From the NCBI GenBank assembly GCA_964457525.1, contig CAYWGS010000088.1, positions 638 through 6,242 on the forward strand: a DNA stretch of 5,605 nt, in the 5' to 3' direction. The notes beneath the pieces are model-generated. The model was not told the origin of the DNA. It saw only the letters and a program-made list of their open reading frames with translations, and did not search any database. How positions within the stretch are numbered: position 1 is the stretch's first letter; the number at the start of each line of letters is the position of its first letter. Positions 1 to 5,605 of the stretch are shown here, piece by piece. The DNA is from an uncultured Erysipelotrichaceae bacterium (GTDB lineage Bacteria > Bacillota_I > Bacilli_A > Erysipelotrichales > Erysipelotrichaceae). Position numbers and translations under genes: made by a program.

Positions 1-368
1 ATACATGGAAAGCGATCTTTTTTAGTAAAATTTGGTTTATACAGATTCGCCGTTACGTAGATTTTTTCTAAAGATTCGAATACGATATTTTCACGCGAAT
101 AAAATTCGTACTTGTCTACCTTAACAAGTTTCGCATTCAGTGATTTTGTTGTATATGGTATGTCACCTAACGCTTTGAGAACTGATACTTCAATCCAAGA
201 TTGATGTTTCTTAAGATCTGATATTAGTTTTATTGATTTCTTTTTACGATCTCTTTTCTTAAATGCGTTATGAGAACGATTAATAATCATTTGATTTAAT
301 TGATCCTTAGAATCAACATTTAAGAGACCATGGTATGATAAATCTTCAATTTCTTTTAATATTTTCAT
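1..368 (-). CDS. Probable alpha/beta-hydrolase-type esterase (acetyl-esterase / dienelactone-hydrolase-like); N-terminal 122 codons only, 3' end beyond window start
   Basis: Not in the supplied ORF track because it has no stop in the window. My hand translation of the reverse complement from ATG (368..366) is stop-free to position 1: MKILKEIEDLSYHGLLNVDSKDQLNQMIINRSHNAFKKRDRKKKSIKLISDLKKHQSWIEVSVLKALGDIPYTTKSLNAKLVKVDKYEFYSRENIVFESLEKIYVTANLYKPNFTKKDRFPC. A helical leader followed by '..Y..E.IVFES....V.ANLYKP......FP' resembles the segment preceding the core of acetylxylan-esterase/dienelactone-hydrolase-like alpha/beta hydrolases. The GxSxG nucleophile elbow would lie outside the window, so the family call is tentative. 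The ATG overlaps the upstream TGA (ATGA at 365..368), supporting real translation. Confidence 0.55.
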   Translation of the reverse strand, partial: MKILKEIEDLSYHGLLNVDSKDQLNQMIINRSHNAFKKRDRKKKSIKLISDLKKHQSWIEVSVLKALGDIPYTTKSLNAKLVKVDKYEFYSRENIVFESLEKIYVTANLYKPNFTKKDRFPC

Positions 369-1297
369 AGAAAGTTTAAATCATCAACCCTTATACAAGG
401 GTAATGTCCTCTCTTATTTAAATCACCAAATATATCCAAAGCACTAAGTTTTAAATTAGGGTTTATAACTTTCATTGTTCCAGTAATAGGAGTTGAAAAT
501 GTATAATCTTGGTGTTTTTTAACTACTTCTGTCGTCCGATAGAATAATTTGTCGCAATCGTTTTTAACAGCAAAATCCTCATTCATATCAACAATTAATT
601 TTAAATTACCCACACTCTCTATAACATAAGCAATCTTAATATCGCCTTCAAATCCAATTCTAATGCATGAGAATGATTGATAATTCAAATCATGTATAAC
701 ATAGTTATGCTCATTATTTAGTGGTTCTAAATGACCTTGAATCATTTTTTTTGTTTCATCTAAGGTTCTGAAAAATTTCGGTAATGTTTTAAGTTCATAG
801 GCATTGTAGTATTTTTCAACTTCTAATTCCTCAATATGCTCAATAATTTTGTATTCTAATTGAGTGACATTTAGCTTTTCTTTAGGTACATGAACTTCGT
901 ATATTTGCCCTACAATCATGGCCCCAAATTTAAGATAATTCTTTCCATCACCTGAAATAACTAATAAATCTGTTTTATTACTTAGTTCTTTTTCAATGTA
1001 ATTGAGAATGCTAGTTGAAAATCCATTTCCTTGAAAATCTTTATATGTACAAACCGCTCCTAACATTCTCGTATTTAAAGTTAAATTAAGGAAATCAATC
1101 TTTGTAGGATAAGTTGCGATGAAACTTACTAATTGACCGTTATAAAAAGCTCCAAACAAATTATCGATATTGCACTCATTAAAGACATGCGGATATCGTC
1201 GTTCAAAAAATGATTCGCACTTAAAAAATACAGTATTACATAATTTATAAGCCATCTCTATTTCTTTTTGATTTTTTAAAGTGCGAATTTCATTCAT
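365..1297 (-). CDS. GNAT-family N-acetyltransferase domain (about residues 1-135) fused to a ~170-aa C-terminal region of unclear function (possibly Eis-like architecture)
   Basis: 310-aa ORF. The acetyl-CoA motif A-like sequence Q-G-N-G-F-S (residues 89-94, nt 1016..1033) follows a beta-strand-like 'MLGAVCTYKDF' and is followed by a helix 'TSILNYIEKEL', then 'LLVISGDGKNYLKFGA'. This is the typical GNAT core order. A GGAG Shine-Dalgarno lies 9 nt upstream. The start codon directly abuts the upstream stop (TAAATG). The C-terminal half has no motif I can assign by eye. Confidence 0.7.
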   Translation of the reverse strand: MNEIRTLKNQKEIEMAYKLCNTVFFKCESFFERRYPHVFNECNIDNLFGAFYNGQLVSFIATYPTKIDFLNLTLNTRMLGAVCTYKDFQGNGFSTSILNYIEKELSNKTDLLVISGDGKNYLKFGAMIVGQIYEVHVPKEKLNVTQLEYKIIEHIEELEVEKYYNAYELKTLPKFFRTLDETKKMIQGHLEPLNNEHNYVIHDLNYQSFSCIRIGFEGDIKIAYVIESVGNLKLIVDMNEDFAVKNDCDKLFYRTTEVVKKHQDYTFSTPITGTMKVINPNLKLSALDIFGDLNKRGHYPCIRVDDLNFL

Positions 1298-2476
1298 TTA
1301 AGTTAACTCCACAAATACTTTTGTTTCAATGCTTTCATCAGCACAGAAGGATAATAGTGAAGCTCTAAGACCATCTTCGACTGAAGCTACTGGTTTTGTT
1401 TGATTGATGATACATTCTGTAAATTCTTTGACAACTTGAGTATCACCTCCACCATGAAAATTCATTCCTGAAATATGATACTTCTCTGTTTGATTTCTTC
1501 GATAATCCATTTTAGTTAGATTCCCTTCTTCTAAATCACCAAAAATAAGACCATATTCAAAATGTATCATAATATCTCTTCCATCTTTTCCACTCATCGA
1601 AATAACGTTAAATATTCCATGTGTATTATCATCAAATAAAACCATGACTGTTTGAGAATCATTTATATCAGAAGTATTACCGTAGATACATTCATTAACT
1701 CCACCAGCTGTTTTGTCTAAAAGCACTTTACCATCATGATATTTCGCGTATTGTGTGATGTCCTCTCGATAAATACATTTTTTATCTGGGCATGTTGAAC
1801 AACTTACTTGCCCTACAGATTCACGCGCAAATGTACGCGACCCCATGGACATTACACCAATTGGCTTTGCATCATTTGATTTAATCCAACACATCATGTC
1901 CAGATCATGTGAACATTTTTCGTTCATGAAACCACCCGTATATTCTTTCATTCTATGCCAACTACGCTTGAATTTAGTTCCATGAACAACTGTTAGTCTT
2001 TCATTCATTTGAATTTGTGTGATTCTTCCTAAATCATTCTCCGCAATCCATGATTTTATCTTTCTATAGAAAGGAGAATAACGCATAACAAATCCTACTT
2101 GAATAACTTTTGAATAATTCTTTGCGATTTCTCCAATTTCTAATATGGCTTCTTTAGTTGTAGCGATTGGTTTTTCAAGAAAAATATTATAGTTTGATTG
2201 TGTTAGTCGTTTAAAAACTGATAAATGTGTCCACTCTGGTGTCATAATAAACGCACCATCTACTTTATCACTAGGATACTTTTCTAACATTAATTCAATA
2301 TCATTAAAGATTTCTACACCTTCAATCTTTGCGTCTTTTAATCTAGCTTCGATAAAAGGATTACCTTCCACAAAGGTATCCATAATAGCGACAACTTTAC
2401 AATTTAATTCGTTTTCAAGTATTTCCGAGAAGAAAATACCACGAGCTCCCCCACCAACAATAATAAATTTTTGCAT
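1298..2476 (-). CDS. Gfo/Idh/MocA-family NAD-dependent oxidoreductase, paralog 3 (392 aa), with 4-Cys insert
   Basis: The N-terminus starts directly with Rossmann beta1 and the glycine motif IIVGGGARG (G-x-G-x-x-G). An acidic residue ends beta2 (VVAIMD, Asp33), which suggests NAD over NADP. The family-defining EKP motif is present (FLEKP, residues 100-103), as are the active-site helix EKCSHDLD (186-193) and the C-terminal HGGGD (341-345, nt 1442..1456). No signal peptide. An AAGGAA Shine-Dalgarno lies 8 nt upstream of the ATG. Confidence 0.9.
   Translation of the reverse strand: MQKFIIVGGGARGIFFSEILENELNCKVVAIMDTFVEGNPFIEARLKDAKIEGVEIFNDIELMLEKYPSDKVDGAFIMTPEWTHLSVFKRLTQSNYNIFLEKPIATTKEAILEIGEIAKNYSKVIQVGFVMRYSPFYRKIKSWIAENDLGRITQIQMNERLTVVHGTKFKRSWHRMKEYTGGFMNEKCSHDLDMMCWIKSNDAKPIGVMSMGSRTFARESVGQVSCSTCPDKKCIYREDITQYAKYHDGKVLLDKTAGGVNECIYGNTSDINDSQTVMVLFDDNTHGIFNVISMSGKDGRDIMIHFEYGLIFGDLEEGNLTKMDYRRNQTEKYHISGMNFHGGGDTQVVKEFTECIINQTKPVASVEDGLRASLLSFCADESIETKVFVELT
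1307..1312 (-). promoter_or_regulatory. Shine-Dalgarno (GTGGAG) for the GNAT gene, embedded in the last codons of paralog 3
   Basis: The minus-strand mRNA reads GTGGAGTTAACTTAAATG. GGAG lies 9 nt before the ATG at 1297, and the stop TAA directly abuts the ATG. Confidence 0.65.
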
Positions 2477-2484
2477 ATTAATAG

Positions 2485-2490
2485 TTCCTT
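2485..2490 (-). promoter_or_regulatory. Shine-Dalgarno (AAGGAA) for oxidoreductase paralog 3
   Basis: The 24-nt spacer reads ACATAACATAAAGGAACTATTAAT on the minus strand, followed by ATG. AAGGAA lies 8 nt from the start. Confidence 0.7.
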
Positions 2491-2500
2491 TATGTTATGT

Positions 2501-3724
2501 TTATCTTTTAAATTCTTCAATATGAACAACACGATTTTCCGCCAGAGATAAATTTATAGCCATTCCAATATATGCTGCATTGAATCCAGCTTCACTATTT
2601 GCCATATGATTGAGAGGATCCGTTATGATCTTGTTCGCAAAAATCATCTCCATCATGCGATCATCTCCACCACCATGACTTCCACTAGATACGGGTACAT
2701 TTATTTCTTTTTTATTCCCGTTATCATCATATACATTTAACAGATAAATTTGTTTATTTGCATATGGTCCAACTAAACCATGAAAATCTTCTGCTTCAAT
2801 TCTACCCTTGTCACCTGTGATACTTAATCGGTAACCTTCATATGGAGCATAAGCAATAAGCTTATAGCTCATATCTATATTATCTTCATAGCTAATAAGT
2901 GCGGTTATTGTATCTTCTATATCAATTTTTTCTGAGTATACACACCCATCTCTAAAATAACCATCTTCATGTTCTGCTTGATAAAACATAGAATTAATTG
3001 CTTCATCATTTGAATAATCTTTATAAAATTTACATTCATTCTTATGTAAACATACTCTACAGTTTATTCCATTAAATAAACTATTCTTTGCGCCATAGAA
3101 ATATAACCCACCTTTTGCATATACTTCTATAGGTTTTTTCTCTATTAACCAATTGATTAAATCAAAATGATGAGTTGCTTTATGAACCGCTAACCCACCT
3201 GAATTCTTTTTTTCTCGATGCCATCTTCTAAAATAATCTGCACCATGTACTTGATCCAATAACCACTCAAAATGAATGCTTTTAATTTTTCCAATTGAAT
3301 GCGATTTAAGTGTTTCTTTTATAGTAGTCGCAAATAATGTAAAACGATAATTAAATGTAATCGTAAGTTTCTTCTGTGTTTCCTTCTCCGCATTTATAAT
3401 AATATTAGCCTTCTCTTTTGTTGTTGTGATTGGTTTCTCGCAAATAACATCACATCCTAATCTCATTGCTAAATCAATATAATAATCATGAGTCGCATCT
3501 AATGTACCAATTAAAACAGTATCACATCCACTTTCACTAATTAATGCCTCAGCGCTACTATAAACTTTTACTTTATTTTCTAATCGTTCACTTAGTTTAT
3601 TTGCTCTAGTCATGTTCTGATCAAATACACCTACAATAGTGACTGTATCTTGAAACTTTAGATATAAATTCAATGCATATTGAAAAGTTATACGATTTCC
3701 TGCTCCAATTAATGCTAATTTCAT
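2501..3724 (-). CDS. Gfo/Idh/MocA-family oxidoreductase, paralog 2 (407 aa), with 4-Cys insert and an atypical glycine motif
   Basis: MKLALIGAGNRI (G-x-G-x-x-I; the third glycine is replaced). Asp35 ends beta2 (IVGVFD). EKP motif present (ICEKP, residues 94-98). Active-site helix HKATHHFD (181-188) and HGGGD (350-354, nt 2663..2677). A strong AAGGAG Shine-Dalgarno lies 8 nt upstream. The ATG overlaps the stop of the upstream gene (ATGA, 3721..3724). Confidence 0.9.
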   Translation of the reverse strand: MKLALIGAGNRITFQYALNLYLKFQDTVTIVGVFDQNMTRANKLSERLENKVKVYSSAEALISESGCDTVLIGTLDATHDYYIDLAMRLGCDVICEKPITTTKEKANIIINAEKETQKKLTITFNYRFTLFATTIKETLKSHSIGKIKSIHFEWLLDQVHGADYFRRWHREKKNSGGLAVHKATHHFDLINWLIEKKPIEVYAKGGLYFYGAKNSLFNGINCRVCLHKNECKFYKDYSNDEAINSMFYQAEHEDGYFRDGCVYSEKIDIEDTITALISYEDNIDMSYKLIAYAPYEGYRLSITGDKGRIEAEDFHGLVGPYANKQIYLLNVYDDNGNKKEINVPVSSGSHGGGDDRMMEMIFANKIITDPLNHMANSEAGFNAAYIGMAINLSLAENRVVHIEEFKR

Positions 3725-4965
3725 ATATCAATCTCCTTCTCAAAAGCTTCTAAATCAATAACTCTATGATTTATACGAGAGGATTCTGCTGCTAATGACA
3801 TTAAATGACTCATTATTGATTTATCTACAGAAGTACGACCATTTTTAACATTGTTCTCTTGTACTTCTTCAATGAATCCTTTTATAATGCCTGCATCTCC
3901 ACCTTCATGTAGTGAATCAGACTCTCCGATTTGTATAATTCTTTCTTCTGATTCATCATAACGCTTTACAGTAATCTTTCGATCTAAAGTATTTCCACGT
4001 ATTTCTCCTTCAGTCCCCATTAAATGCATATATCTTGATATTTCATCCGTAAATGCGCACAAATGAAAACTAACATGAACGCCATTTTCAAATTCAAGCA
4101 AAGTCACTTGTGTTTCCATAACATCATTATCTAAGTCATAAACACATCTACCATAATCTGATACTTCAAACCCTTTCTCTAAACTACCGTACTCATTTAC
4201 AATAATTTTAGCTAGGTGTTGAGCTTTTTCTTGTTTATAAAGTTTATTGACTTCATATAAGCAACTTTTTGCATGTGGGCAATGTTCTCCACATCGAGCT
4301 GGTACCCCCTTTGGTTTATTCATTTGTATAAATGTATTTTGAACACCAAAAGATGAGACTCGTGTACACTTTGAATCAACATACCAAGCCATTAAATCCA
4401 TATCATGACAAGCCTTAGCTAATATAATTGGATTTGCCATATCAGATCTATTCCATGGTCCTCTCACAAAACTATGTGCATAATGATAATATGCTATATT
4501 TTCCTCATGTTGTATGCTTTTAAGTTCACCTATTACTTTTTCTTCTAGCAAATGTTTTACAACACCGAAGAAATCTGAGTATCTTAATACGTGTGCAATC
4601 GATAAGATTCTTTCTTGTGACTTAGCATGCTCTCGCAAATTAATTAACTCTTGTTTAGAACCTGAGATTGGTTTCTCTAATAGGACATGATAGCCTTTTG
4701 ATAAAGCTCTCATAGTTGGTTCATAATGCATAAAATCCTGTGTTGCTATTATAGCTGCATCTGCTAATTTCTCAACTTCAAGAATAGATTCCCACGAATC
4801 ATAACATGCATCCAGTGGTATATTAAACTCACGAGAAAACCGAAGACGTTTATTAAGATTAGGATCCGCCATTGCTACAAAAGAAACATCTGGATGGTTA
4901 TTTTTTACCCAATGAGCATATATTTCCATGCCGCGGTTACCCGCGCCAATTAGTATTAATTTCAT
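3721..4965 (-). CDS. Gfo/Idh/MocA-family NAD-dependent oxidoreductase, paralog 1 (414 aa), with 4-Cys insert
   Basis: MKLILIGAGNRG (G-x-G-x-x-G). Asp34 ends beta2 (FVAMAD). EKP motif present (LLEKP, residues 95-99, EKP at nt 4669..4677). Active-site helix AKACHDMD (183-190) and HEGGD (353-357, nt 3895..3909). An AAGGA Shine-Dalgarno lies 7 nt upstream of the ATG. No signal peptide. Confidence 0.9.
   Translation of the reverse strand: MKLILIGAGNRGMEIYAHWVKNNHPDVSFVAMADPNLNKRLRFSREFNIPLDACYDSWESILEVEKLADAAIIATQDFMHYEPTMRALSKGYHVLLEKPISGSKQELINLREHAKSQERILSIAHVLRYSDFFGVVKHLLEEKVIGELKSIQHEENIAYYHYAHSFVRGPWNRSDMANPIILAKACHDMDLMAWYVDSKCTRVSSFGVQNTFIQMNKPKGVPARCGEHCPHAKSCLYEVNKLYKQEKAQHLAKIIVNEYGSLEKGFEVSDYGRCVYDLDNDVMETQVTLLEFENGVHVSFHLCAFTDEISRYMHLMGTEGEIRGNTLDRKITVKRYDESEERIIQIGESDSLHEGGDAGIIKGFIEEVQENNVKNGRTSVDKSIMSHLMSLAAESSRINHRVIDLEAFEKEIDI
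3733..3738 (-). promoter_or_regulatory. Shine-Dalgarno (AAGGAG) for oxidoreductase paralog 2, embedded in the last codons of paralog 1
   Basis: The minus-strand mRNA reads GAGAAGGAGATTGATATATGA. AAGGAG lies 8 nt before the ATG at 3724, and the ATG overlaps the upstream TGA. Confidence 0.8.
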
Positions 4966-4977: not shown

Positions 4978-5605
4978 CTAGCCTTTTACAGCCCCTATAG
5001 TTGCACCTGCGACAACTCGTTTTTGGAAAATGGCATAAATCACTAATGTTGGAACAAGTGATATTACAATTGCCGCAAAGAGTGTGACGTAATTTGACGT
5101 ATACCTTAAAACTGTATTCGCATAATAAACACTTACAGCAACTGTGTGTTTACTTGGATCTGTAAGATAAATAAACGGATTGATAAAATCATTATATAAA
5201 TTTAAGAATCTAAAGATTGAAATTGTAATTATACCTGGCATAGATAAAGGAAAAATGATTTTCCAGAATATAACCCACATAGTCGCCCCATCAATTCGAG
5301 CACTTTCTTCTAATTCCTTTGGTATGCTACGCATAAAACTACTCATTAATAAAATATCAAAGGCACTTAATGCAACATTTATAAGTAATATCAACCCAGT
5401 TAGAGAGTTATTTAGTTTAAAAAATACAGCTAATACATATTGTGGAACTAGTATGTTTATACCTGGCAAGAATAGTGACAACATTATTAATCCTAAAATA
5501 AACTTCTTCCCTTTCCATTCTAGTCGAGTCAAAATATATGCAGCTAATGTATTAACAGCAACTCCTACAATTAAACCACCAAATACAAAATAGAGTGTAT
5601 TTAGA
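4978..5605 (-). CDS. Carbohydrate ABC transporter permease (CUT1 family, MalG/LplC-type); C-terminal ~209 codons, N-terminus beyond window end
   Basis: The EAA loop of binding-protein-dependent permeases is present: EESARIDGATMWVIFWKIIFPLSMPG. Flanking segments are hydrophobic and TM-like, and the protein ends in GAVKG as many Firmicute sugar permeases do. The track starts the ORF at a TTG (5532..5530), but I translated the same frame upstream (5533..5604) and it stays open: ..LNTLYFVFGGLIVGVAVNTLAAYI-LTRLEWKGKK. This is the usual TM helix and 'AAY..R..fkGk' cytoplasmic turn of MalG-like proteins, so the real gene continues past 5605. Confidence 0.9.
   Translation of the reverse strand, partial: LNTLYFVFGGLIVGVAVNTLAAYILTRLEWKGKKFILGLIMLSLFLPGINILVPQYVLAVFFKLNNSLTGLILLINVALSAFDILLMSSFMRSIPKELEESARIDGATMWVIFWKIIFPLSMPGIITISIFRFLNLYNDFINPFIYLTDPSKHTVAVSVYYANTVLRYTSNYVTLFAAIVISLVPTLVIYAIFQKRVVAGATIGAVKG

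Follow-up and report, generated by a model that had tools for sequence, protein, structure and literature searches.

A conserved four-cysteine lobe, most likely a metal site, in three paralogous Gfo/Idh/MocA oxidoreductases of an uncultured Erysipelotrichaceae bacterium

The window studied here, that is, the whole stretch of DNA that was analysed, comprises 5,605 nt of contig CAYWGS010000088.1 (positions 638–6,242, forward strand) from an uncultured Erysipelotrichaceae bacterium. All of its genes lie on the minus strand, and three of them encode paralogous oxidoreductases of the Gfo/Idh/MocA family, recognized as open reading frames (ORFs) with Pfam matches: paralog 1 (3721..4965, 414 aa; PF01408 at 1.7e-18, PF22725 and PF02894), paralog 2 (2501..3724, 407 aa; PF01408 at 3.4e-20, PF02894 at 2.3e-22) and paralog 3 (1298..2476, 392 aa; PF01408 at 2.8e-12, PF02894 at 2.8e-09). 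The three proteins are about 26% identical to one another, as divergent as a first-pass annotation of the window had described them, and each carries an insert with four cysteines in its C-terminal domain. The most economical, and most likely, reading of this insert is a four-Cys metal site.

The three paralogs are members of the Gfo/Idh/MocA family, and every defining feature tested was found in them. PF01408 together with PF02894/PF22725 scores above the gathering cut-off in all three, and the GxGxxG motif occupies residues 7–13 (GAGNRG, GAGNRI and GGGARG, respectively). The lysine of the E-K-P motif and the catalytic K-x2-H-x2-D helix (K184-x2-H187-x2-D190 in paralog 1, 4396..4416; 3161–3181 in paralog 2 and 1898–1918 in paralog 3, all minus strand) do not vary among the paralogs or within their families. 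The same holds for a C-terminal H-x-G-G-D loop located outside the cysteine site, which reads HEGGD, HGGGD and HGGGD (H353–D357 of paralog 1, 3895..3909; 2663–2677 and 1442–1456 in paralogs 2 and 3, minus strand). Next to the catalytic histidine there is an additional cysteine in paralog 1 (C186, 4408–4410, in K-A-C-H) and in paralog 3 (C188, 1913–1915, in K-C-S-H), kept in 119 of 121 and 115 of 121 members of the respective families; paralog 2 has Ala/Thr instead, and the solved family member SqgA also has a cysteine there (E-K-C-C-H-F-F-D).

The four-cysteine motif reads C225-x3-C229-x5-C235-x38-C274 in paralog 1 (within RCGEHCPHAKSCLY...GRCVYD), C222-x2-C225-x5-C231-x29-C261 in paralog 2 (within NCRVCLHKNECKFY...DGCVYS) and C226-x2-C229-x4-C234-x28-C263 in paralog 3 (within SCSTCPDKKCIY...NECIYG). 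On the minus strand, the codons of Cys1 to Cys4 lie at 4291–4293, 4279–4281, 4261–4263 and 4144–4146 in paralog 1, at 3059–3061, 3050–3052, 3032–3034 and 2942–2944 in paralog 2, and at 1799–1801, 1790–1792, 1775–1777 and 1688–1690 in paralog 3. Translating the minus-strand ORFs reproduced exactly the residue numbers and nucleotide coordinates given for all four cysteines in the first-pass annotation, as well as its description of the flanking residues, with [LKI]-[YF] after Cys3 and [VI]-Y after Cys4. The cluster had also been placed ~35–38 residues behind the active-site helix, and Cys1 indeed follows the histidine of the K-x2-H-x2-D motif by 38, 37 and 36 residues (H187 in paralog 1, H185 in paralog 2 and H190 in paralog 3), a spread of 36–38 residues over the three proteins. 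The remaining three to five cysteines of each paralog include none that is common to all three.

To place the motif in a wider set of relatives, each paralog was searched against a 5.8-billion-protein collection. The four cysteines were present in 121/121 homologs of paralog 1, in 122/122 aligned sequences of the paralog 2 family, down to 42% identity, and in 120/120 full-length homologs of paralog 3, down to 26–30% identity, the sole exception being a truncated fragment. In the alignment of the paralog 2 family (A2), the invariant columns number 56 of 407 and include all four motif cysteines, along with E251, Y256, R258 and D259 upstream of Cys4, while other cysteines vary (C67 is found in 16/122 sequences and C95 in 33/122). 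The four cysteines are thus under extreme purifying selection in all three families, and their retention, which the first-pass annotation took to argue for function, exceeds chance, as the other cysteines are not shared by all three paralogs and the motif ones are kept in every full-length homolog examined. The distances between them are far less constraining: across homologs, Cys2 and Cys3 are separated by 3–7 residues and Cys3 and Cys4 by 24–62, with unrelated sequences in between. Cysteines that stay fixed while the spacing and the sequence around them drift freely point to ligands rather than to a sequence-specific motif.

Models predicted with AlphaFold2 (AF2) locate the motif in the fold. 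For paralog 2 (103-sequence alignment) the mean predicted local distance difference test (pLDDT) score was 96.1 and the predicted template modelling (pTM) score 0.93, with the blocks of the insert at 93–98; for paralog 1 (114 sequences) the mean pLDDT was 94.5 and the insert blocks scored 91–96. DSSP assignments on these models delimit the insert of paralog 1 to residues 209–284 (4114..4341, minus strand), between strands 200–208 and 285–292, and that of paralog 2 to residues 207–271 (2912..3106, minus strand), between strands 198–206 and 272–279. In paralog 3, the boundaries at about residues 213–272 (1661..1840, minus strand) come from alignment to the other two paralogs instead of a model. 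The residues just before Cys1 and Cys4 are assigned as single-residue beta-bridges in both models (N221/G260 in paralog 2, R224/R273 in paralog 1). As R224 and R273 are the only isolated bridges in the entire model of paralog 1, they are most simply paired with each other, so that both predicted models would bring the start and the end of the lobe, and with them Cys1 and Cys4, together; such bridges are a weak proxy for thiol proximity, informative on Cys1 and Cys4 alone. In the model of paralog 2, a short turn, helical at 222–224, leads from Cys1 to Cys2.

Solved relatives skip this region. The structure 3E18 has about 6 residues (197 to 203) across the span equivalent to residues 204 to 277 of paralog 1 (73 residues), and 3Q2I has 13 where the profile of the paralog 2 family has 68 positions. 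Hidden Markov model alignments to solved relatives end at around residue 205 and restart past Cys4, and none of the 95 distinct PDB sequences matching the paralog 2 family profile aligned across the insert. PDB sequence searches with each paralog likewise returned no structure covering it. These gaps, together with the strands flanking the insert in the models, agree with the first-pass assignment of the four cysteines to an insertion in the C-terminal, substrate-binding and oligomerization domain. A profile of the insert by itself found nothing significant in the PDB (the best match was 7DTA, E = 0.38), and the insert sequences compared with Pfam at E <= 10 gave no zinc-finger, Fer4, Fer2 or other metal domain, with just two chance matches at E = 0.11. 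By these searches, the lobe appears to lie outside every known Pfam metal-binding domain family. A mobile four-Cys domain common to other protein families was also considered and rejected, as neither the PDB nor the Pfam searches with the insert supported it.

We then surveyed relatives irrespective of the lobe with a profile blind to the insert (A3), built on the N-terminal 205–210 residues of the three paralogs and searched against 1.84 billion cluster representatives. It gave 69,349 matches at E <= 1e-3 and 638 at E <= 1e-30. When the 121 full-length members of the best 150 matches were realigned with the three paralogs, 112 sequences had all four cysteines, five had none at any of the four positions (P0396, P0404, P0407, P0414 and P0486) and seven were anomalous, looking like frameshifted high-GC translations, fusions or chimeras, or truncations. 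No clean partial pattern occurred among the realigned representatives. Several sequences had initially appeared to have three cysteines or none; on realignment these were mostly fragments, frameshifted high-GC translations or chimeras, and the cases called Cys-less by regular expression were dismissed in this way except for one clade, recognizable by DPFAL...RDxNVF, which truly lacks the cysteines. A scan of one genome per species, in which at least 592 of the first 600 pattern matches encode a relative of paralog 2, gave a similar picture: among the best 80, 78 have the four cysteines and two are Cys-less (L060, an Anaerolineaceae, and L078, an Opitutales).

The Cys-less proteins retain the lobe itself, with the consensus ...LY-x-D-AE-x-EDGY-x-RD-x-N-VF-GDGI-x-IEDTM. 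In them Cys4 is replaced by Asn and the stretch of Cys1 to Cys3 becomes rich in Tyr and Phe (Y-x-RYTG...DPFAL). This replacement of the cysteine stretch by aromatic packing fits a structural site, and the retention of the rest of the lobe indicates that the cysteine site is dispensable for chemistry. Moreover, since E251, G255-Y256 and R258-D259 are kept even here, the lobe would have a function of its own. In a neighbour-joining tree calculated without the insert columns, all seven Cys-less sequences group in a single clade, to which P0382, a protein with the four cysteines, is sister. The co-variation expected from the first-pass reading is therefore borne out in that the four cysteines are all present or all absent; the stronger version, with repeated independent losses, was rejected because a single loss accounts for the tree.

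Taken globally, the four-Cys type is a property of a subfamily and not a peculiarity of the window, as it marks a very large clade that spans many phyla. In the scan of one genome per species, it was found in Bacillota (Paenibacillus, Clostridia), Chloroflexota, Acidobacteriota, Planctomycetota, Verrucomicrobiota and Calditrichota, in Bacteroidota (Pedobacter, Maribacter, Parabacteroides, Mariniphaga) and in Rhizobiales (Rhizobium, Pararhizobium, Labrys, Microvirga), so that its carriers include both anaerobes and strict aerobes. The first-pass annotation had called the cluster unusual for the family. This stands against the PDB and the searchable literature, since a search of open-access full texts for a cysteine cluster or metal site in the Gfo/Idh/MocA family found none, but it does not stand against sequence databases, where the cluster is common. 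Tandem or nearby pairs of four-Cys genes occur at several loci (L006, L007, L022, L049, L058 and L005), and among the loci examined a triple was seen in the organism of the window alone.

At the start of 37 of the 85 four-Cys-type genes from other phyla in these loci there is a twin-arginine signal, for example MKRRDFITTTAGVAAG (L014, L015, L016, L025, L026, L030, L033, L036, L038–L041, L044–L046, L048, L052–L054, L056, L059, L061, L064–L066, L068–L071, L073, L076, L080 and L083). As this is a canonical signal of the twin-arginine translocation (Tat) pathway, these homologs should be exported folded and loaded with their cofactor. The three paralogs of the window have no signal peptide, their GxGxxG motif beginning at residue 7–8, and neither do most four-Cys relatives in Bacillota, Chloroflexota and Rhizobiales.

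For the three paralogs, NCBIfam returned sub-threshold matches alone (IolG, UDP-GlcNAc 3-dehydrogenase, levoglucosan dehydrogenase and BT2158/2159 families), and no specific function was therefore assigned. Foldseek searches with the predicted models reached probability 1.00 for many family structures, with query-normalised TM scores of 0.69–0.72 at best. The model of paralog 1 matched AFR (2glx), YjhC and SqgA at E ~1e-24, while the best matches of paralog 2 were the NAD-dependent glycosidases SqgA 8qc8/8qc2 (E ~1e-25); SqgA was top for paralog 2 but not for paralog 1. By sequence, the best PDB match of paralog 3 was again SqgA (8qc2, 2.5e-13), over the N-terminal half alone. The conserved catalytic His321 of SqgA is the equivalent of His404 in GH109 (PMC10755693), whose acid/base has been placed in a 'GGHGG loop' by work cited there. 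The C-terminal 108 residues of paralog 2 found no match in the PDB, so the H-x-G-G-D loop is left unaligned to His321 of SqgA or to the loop of GH109. The three paralogs might work as oxidative glycosidases and not as plain dehydrogenases.

In the window, upstream of paralog 1, lies an ABC sugar permease with a BPD_transp_1 match (4978–5532, minus strand), which is truncated by the window edge and is 275 aa long in the near-identical locus L001. Its listed TTG start is an artefact of that edge, and an antisense plus-strand ORF inside the permease gene (5180–5593, 137 aa) is probably spurious. Downstream of paralog 3 are a GNAT protein (365–1297, minus strand, 310 aa) and the start of a further gene (1–368, minus strand), an AXE1-type esterase in L001. 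Junctions between the genes are tight: the stop of paralog 1 and the start of paralog 2 overlap as ATGA (3721–3724), the TAA of paralog 3 is directly followed by the ATG of the GNAT gene (1295–1300), and the GNAT stop overlaps the next start (365–368), which suggests translational coupling. The first ~110 residues of the GNAT protein match Acetyltransf_9, its ~200 C-terminal residues are without assignment, and an NCBIfam search with it gave no match. It sits between the three oxidoreductases and the deacetylase-type esterase, and an acetyltransferase with an esterase is an odd pair in a catabolic operon.

In a Bacillota metagenome-assembled genome, this near-identical locus (L001/L005) shows the whole arrangement. 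A KDPG-aldolase-like gene, a PfkB kinase, an AraC regulator, a solute-binding protein and two permeases precede the three paralogs and the GNAT gene; these are followed by the AXE1-type esterase, a NagB-like gene, a 642-aa protein without recorded Pfam match (L001 16015–17943), a NagA-like amidohydrolase, a member of the mannitol dehydrogenase family (UxuB/UxaB-like) and an altronate-dehydratase-like gene. Judged from these Pfam names, the content suggests catabolism of an acetylated amino-sugar/uronate glycan, and oligosaccharides of this kind, with their 3-keto products, would be candidate substrates of the paralogs. Across the 80 loci, the recurrent neighbours are LacI, SDR, PfkB, the tagaturonate epimerase UxaE, pectate lyase, GDSL esterase, NagB-like proteins, 2-hydroxyacid dehydrogenase and xylose-isomerase-like TIM barrels (AP_endonuc_2). 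Neither the L001/L005 operon nor these recurrent neighbours include a ferredoxin, cytochrome or flavoprotein.

The previous analysis leads to the hypothesis of a lobe closed by a metal. Mechanistically, a stretch of 60–75 residues that interrupts the C-terminal domain between two of its beta-strands would bind one metal centre through four cysteine thiolates, three of them provided by the start of the lobe (Cys1-x2/3-Cys2-x3-7-Cys3) and the fourth, Cys4, by its very end, just ahead of the return of the chain to the sheet. In turn, this staple would fix the polar and aromatic residues next to Cys4 (in the paralog 2 family E251 and D/G-Y256-x-R258-D259), presumably part of the lining of the active site towards the substrate. 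The metal would then have an architectural role, not one in electron transfer, and the lobe presumably shapes the substrate pocket, in what is probably the variable region that determines specificity in solved relatives. That the four cysteines hold a structural Zn(II) in this manner is a reading to which we give about an even chance. Zinc is favoured because it is the default for non-redox four-Cys sites, because electron-transfer partners are missing and because the family is abundant in aerobes; the replacement of the site by packing in the sister clade, which resembles the adenylate-kinase LID and the C+/C- ribosomal proteins, argues in the same direction. The broader proposal of the first-pass annotation, a structural zinc or an iron–sulfur (Fe-S) site, survived every test that we ran and is partly supported, not proven.

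Several observations weigh against zinc. The layout of three close ligands plus a remote one is more typical of Fe-S than of two-knuckle zinc sites, and not a single Cys-to-His or Cys-to-Asp substitution was seen in ~480 sequences. Export of 37 of the 85 relatives through the Tat system follows a route typical of Fe-S proteins; NAD(P)-loaded GFOR is also Tat-exported. The all-or-none pattern rests on a single loss event in one clade, and the absence of so large a clade from the ~95 matched solved members could hint at oxygen-labile proteins.

Several of these points would be explained if the four cysteines ligated a [4Fe-4S] or [2Fe-2S] cluster, be it structural, regulatory (as a sensor of O2, iron or redox state) or a periplasmic electron relay, an alternative that we consider possible but clearly less probable than the zinc staple. 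The pattern C-x2/3-C-x3-7-C...C with its remote fourth cysteine recalls known Fe-S motifs, such as CX2CX3CX~27C in Mo-bisPGD enzymes, CX4CX2CX29C in plant ferredoxins and CX2CX5C in SPASM domains. Proline often follows the second or third cysteine (GCP, CPF/CPY/CPW), the cysteines are absolutely invariant, twin-arginine signals are frequent, no member of the type is present in the PDB, and the bulky aromatics filling the site in the Cys-less clade may suggest a large cofactor. On the other hand, the insert matches no Fe-S Pfam domain, the variable cysteine spacing is tolerated equally by zinc, and the family is common in strict aerobes (Rhizobium, Pedobacter, Maribacter, Paenibacillus, Microvirga). 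A cluster is further disfavoured by the lack of a conserved ferredoxin, flavoprotein or cytochrome partner in the 80 loci or the operon, and by the cofactor itself: NAD(H) is an obligate hydride (two-electron) carrier, which needs a flavin to pass single electrons to or from a cluster and cannot by itself feed a one-electron Fe-S relay. Should the site prove to be Fe-S after all, which we regard as doubtful to the same degree, the clade would comprise the first Fe-S enzymes of the Gfo/Idh/MocA family, in hundreds of species and at least seven phyla.

It is improbable that the lobe is stabilised or regulated without any metal, by a CxxC redox switch or by one or two disulfides. The C-x2-C arrangement is there, and the oxidising periplasm is where many relatives end up after export. 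However, the three proteins of the window and most relatives in Bacillota, Chloroflexota and Rhizobiales are cytoplasmic, and the missing signal peptide makes disulfides unlikely in the paralogs studied here, while Tat substrates are already folded, in the reducing cytoplasm, when they are exported. In addition, four invariant cysteines with three close together and one remote are unlike a thioredoxin-like switch, and the C-x3-C variant of the paralog 1 family is atypical for a redox CxxC. A directly catalytic cluster, with a Lewis-acid metal or a thiol acting on the substrate, would suit an insert within the substrate-binding domain with other invariant polar residues beside Cys4, but it is very improbable, given that the Cys-less sister clade keeps the K/H/D helix, the EKP motif, the HxGGD loop region and the E..DGY.RD motif and so needs no cysteine site for its chemistry, that four protein ligands leave a metal no free coordination position, and that SqgA and GH109, the closest relatives with a solved structure, are reported to be independent of metals (PMC10755693).

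A structural metal site would matter beyond this locus. Few sugar-active oxidoreductases are commoner in bacteria than those of the Gfo/Idh/MocA family, to which the NAD-dependent glycosidases recognised in recent years also belong, and beyond their nicotinamide cofactor these enzymes are regarded as metal-free. The four-Cys site defines a very large clade without structure, biochemistry or specific annotation model, and it would offer a simple sequence marker by which genes annotated as 'predicted dehydrogenase', thousands of them within polysaccharide-utilisation loci, could be sub-classified. A requirement for zinc or Fe-S, if true, would alter how these enzymes are expressed and assayed, as aerobic preparations containing EDTA could inactivate them. 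An Fe-S cluster would be an unexpected cofactor for the family, and could serve oxygen or redox sensing to switch sugar catabolism or, alternatively, provide an electron outlet for periplasmic NAD-loaded dehydrogenases or glycosidases.

Compared with known systems, the paralogs share with the solved enzymes of their own family (the NAD-dependent sulfoquinovosidases SqgA of GH188, 8QC2/8QC8/8QC6 and 8ZN9; 1,5-anhydrofructose reductase, 2GLX; YjhC/RgNanOx, 6O15 and 6Z3C; DgpA, 9M3D; and 3E18) the two-domain fold (Foldseek E 1e-24 to 1e-26), the EKP lysine and the K-x2-H-x2-D helix, and paralog 3 also the E-K-C-x-H of SqgA; none of these enzymes, however, aligns over the insert. Outside the family, the sole PDB match of the insert profile, the SLC2A4RG zinc peptide 7DTA, aligns over YG...C-x2-C-x5-C with the non-significant E = 0.38. 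We take it to be a C-clamp-type zinc domain, whose spacing is compatible with a zinc site, though it is a 33-residue eukaryotic DNA-binding peptide. The N-terminal [4Fe-4S] site of Mo-bisPGD enzymes and the [2Fe-2S] site of plant ferredoxins have three close cysteines plus one ~25–30 residues away, often a proline after a ligand and many carriers that are Tat substrates, as here, but there is no sequence or profile similarity to them, electron-transfer neighbours are missing and the spacing is far more variable in the present clade.

In many Gram-positives the adenylate kinase LID has a four-Cys zinc site, in place of which E. coli has a hydrogen-bond network. Like the C+/C- ribosomal proteins, it thus offers an all-or-none metal site in which packing replaces the metal in a sister lineage, with the difference that both are much smaller modules of another fold, built on two CxxC knuckles. 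Medium-chain alcohol dehydrogenases carry a structural Zn(Cys)4 lobe (Cys97/100/103/111 in horse liver alcohol dehydrogenase) that is non-catalytic and that some subfamilies possess while others lack it entirely. Their fold is an unrelated GroES-like one and their ligands fall within 15 residues, whereas Cys4 lies 24–62 residues away here, but the likeness is that of four cysteines in a protruding lobe of an NAD-dependent dehydrogenase.

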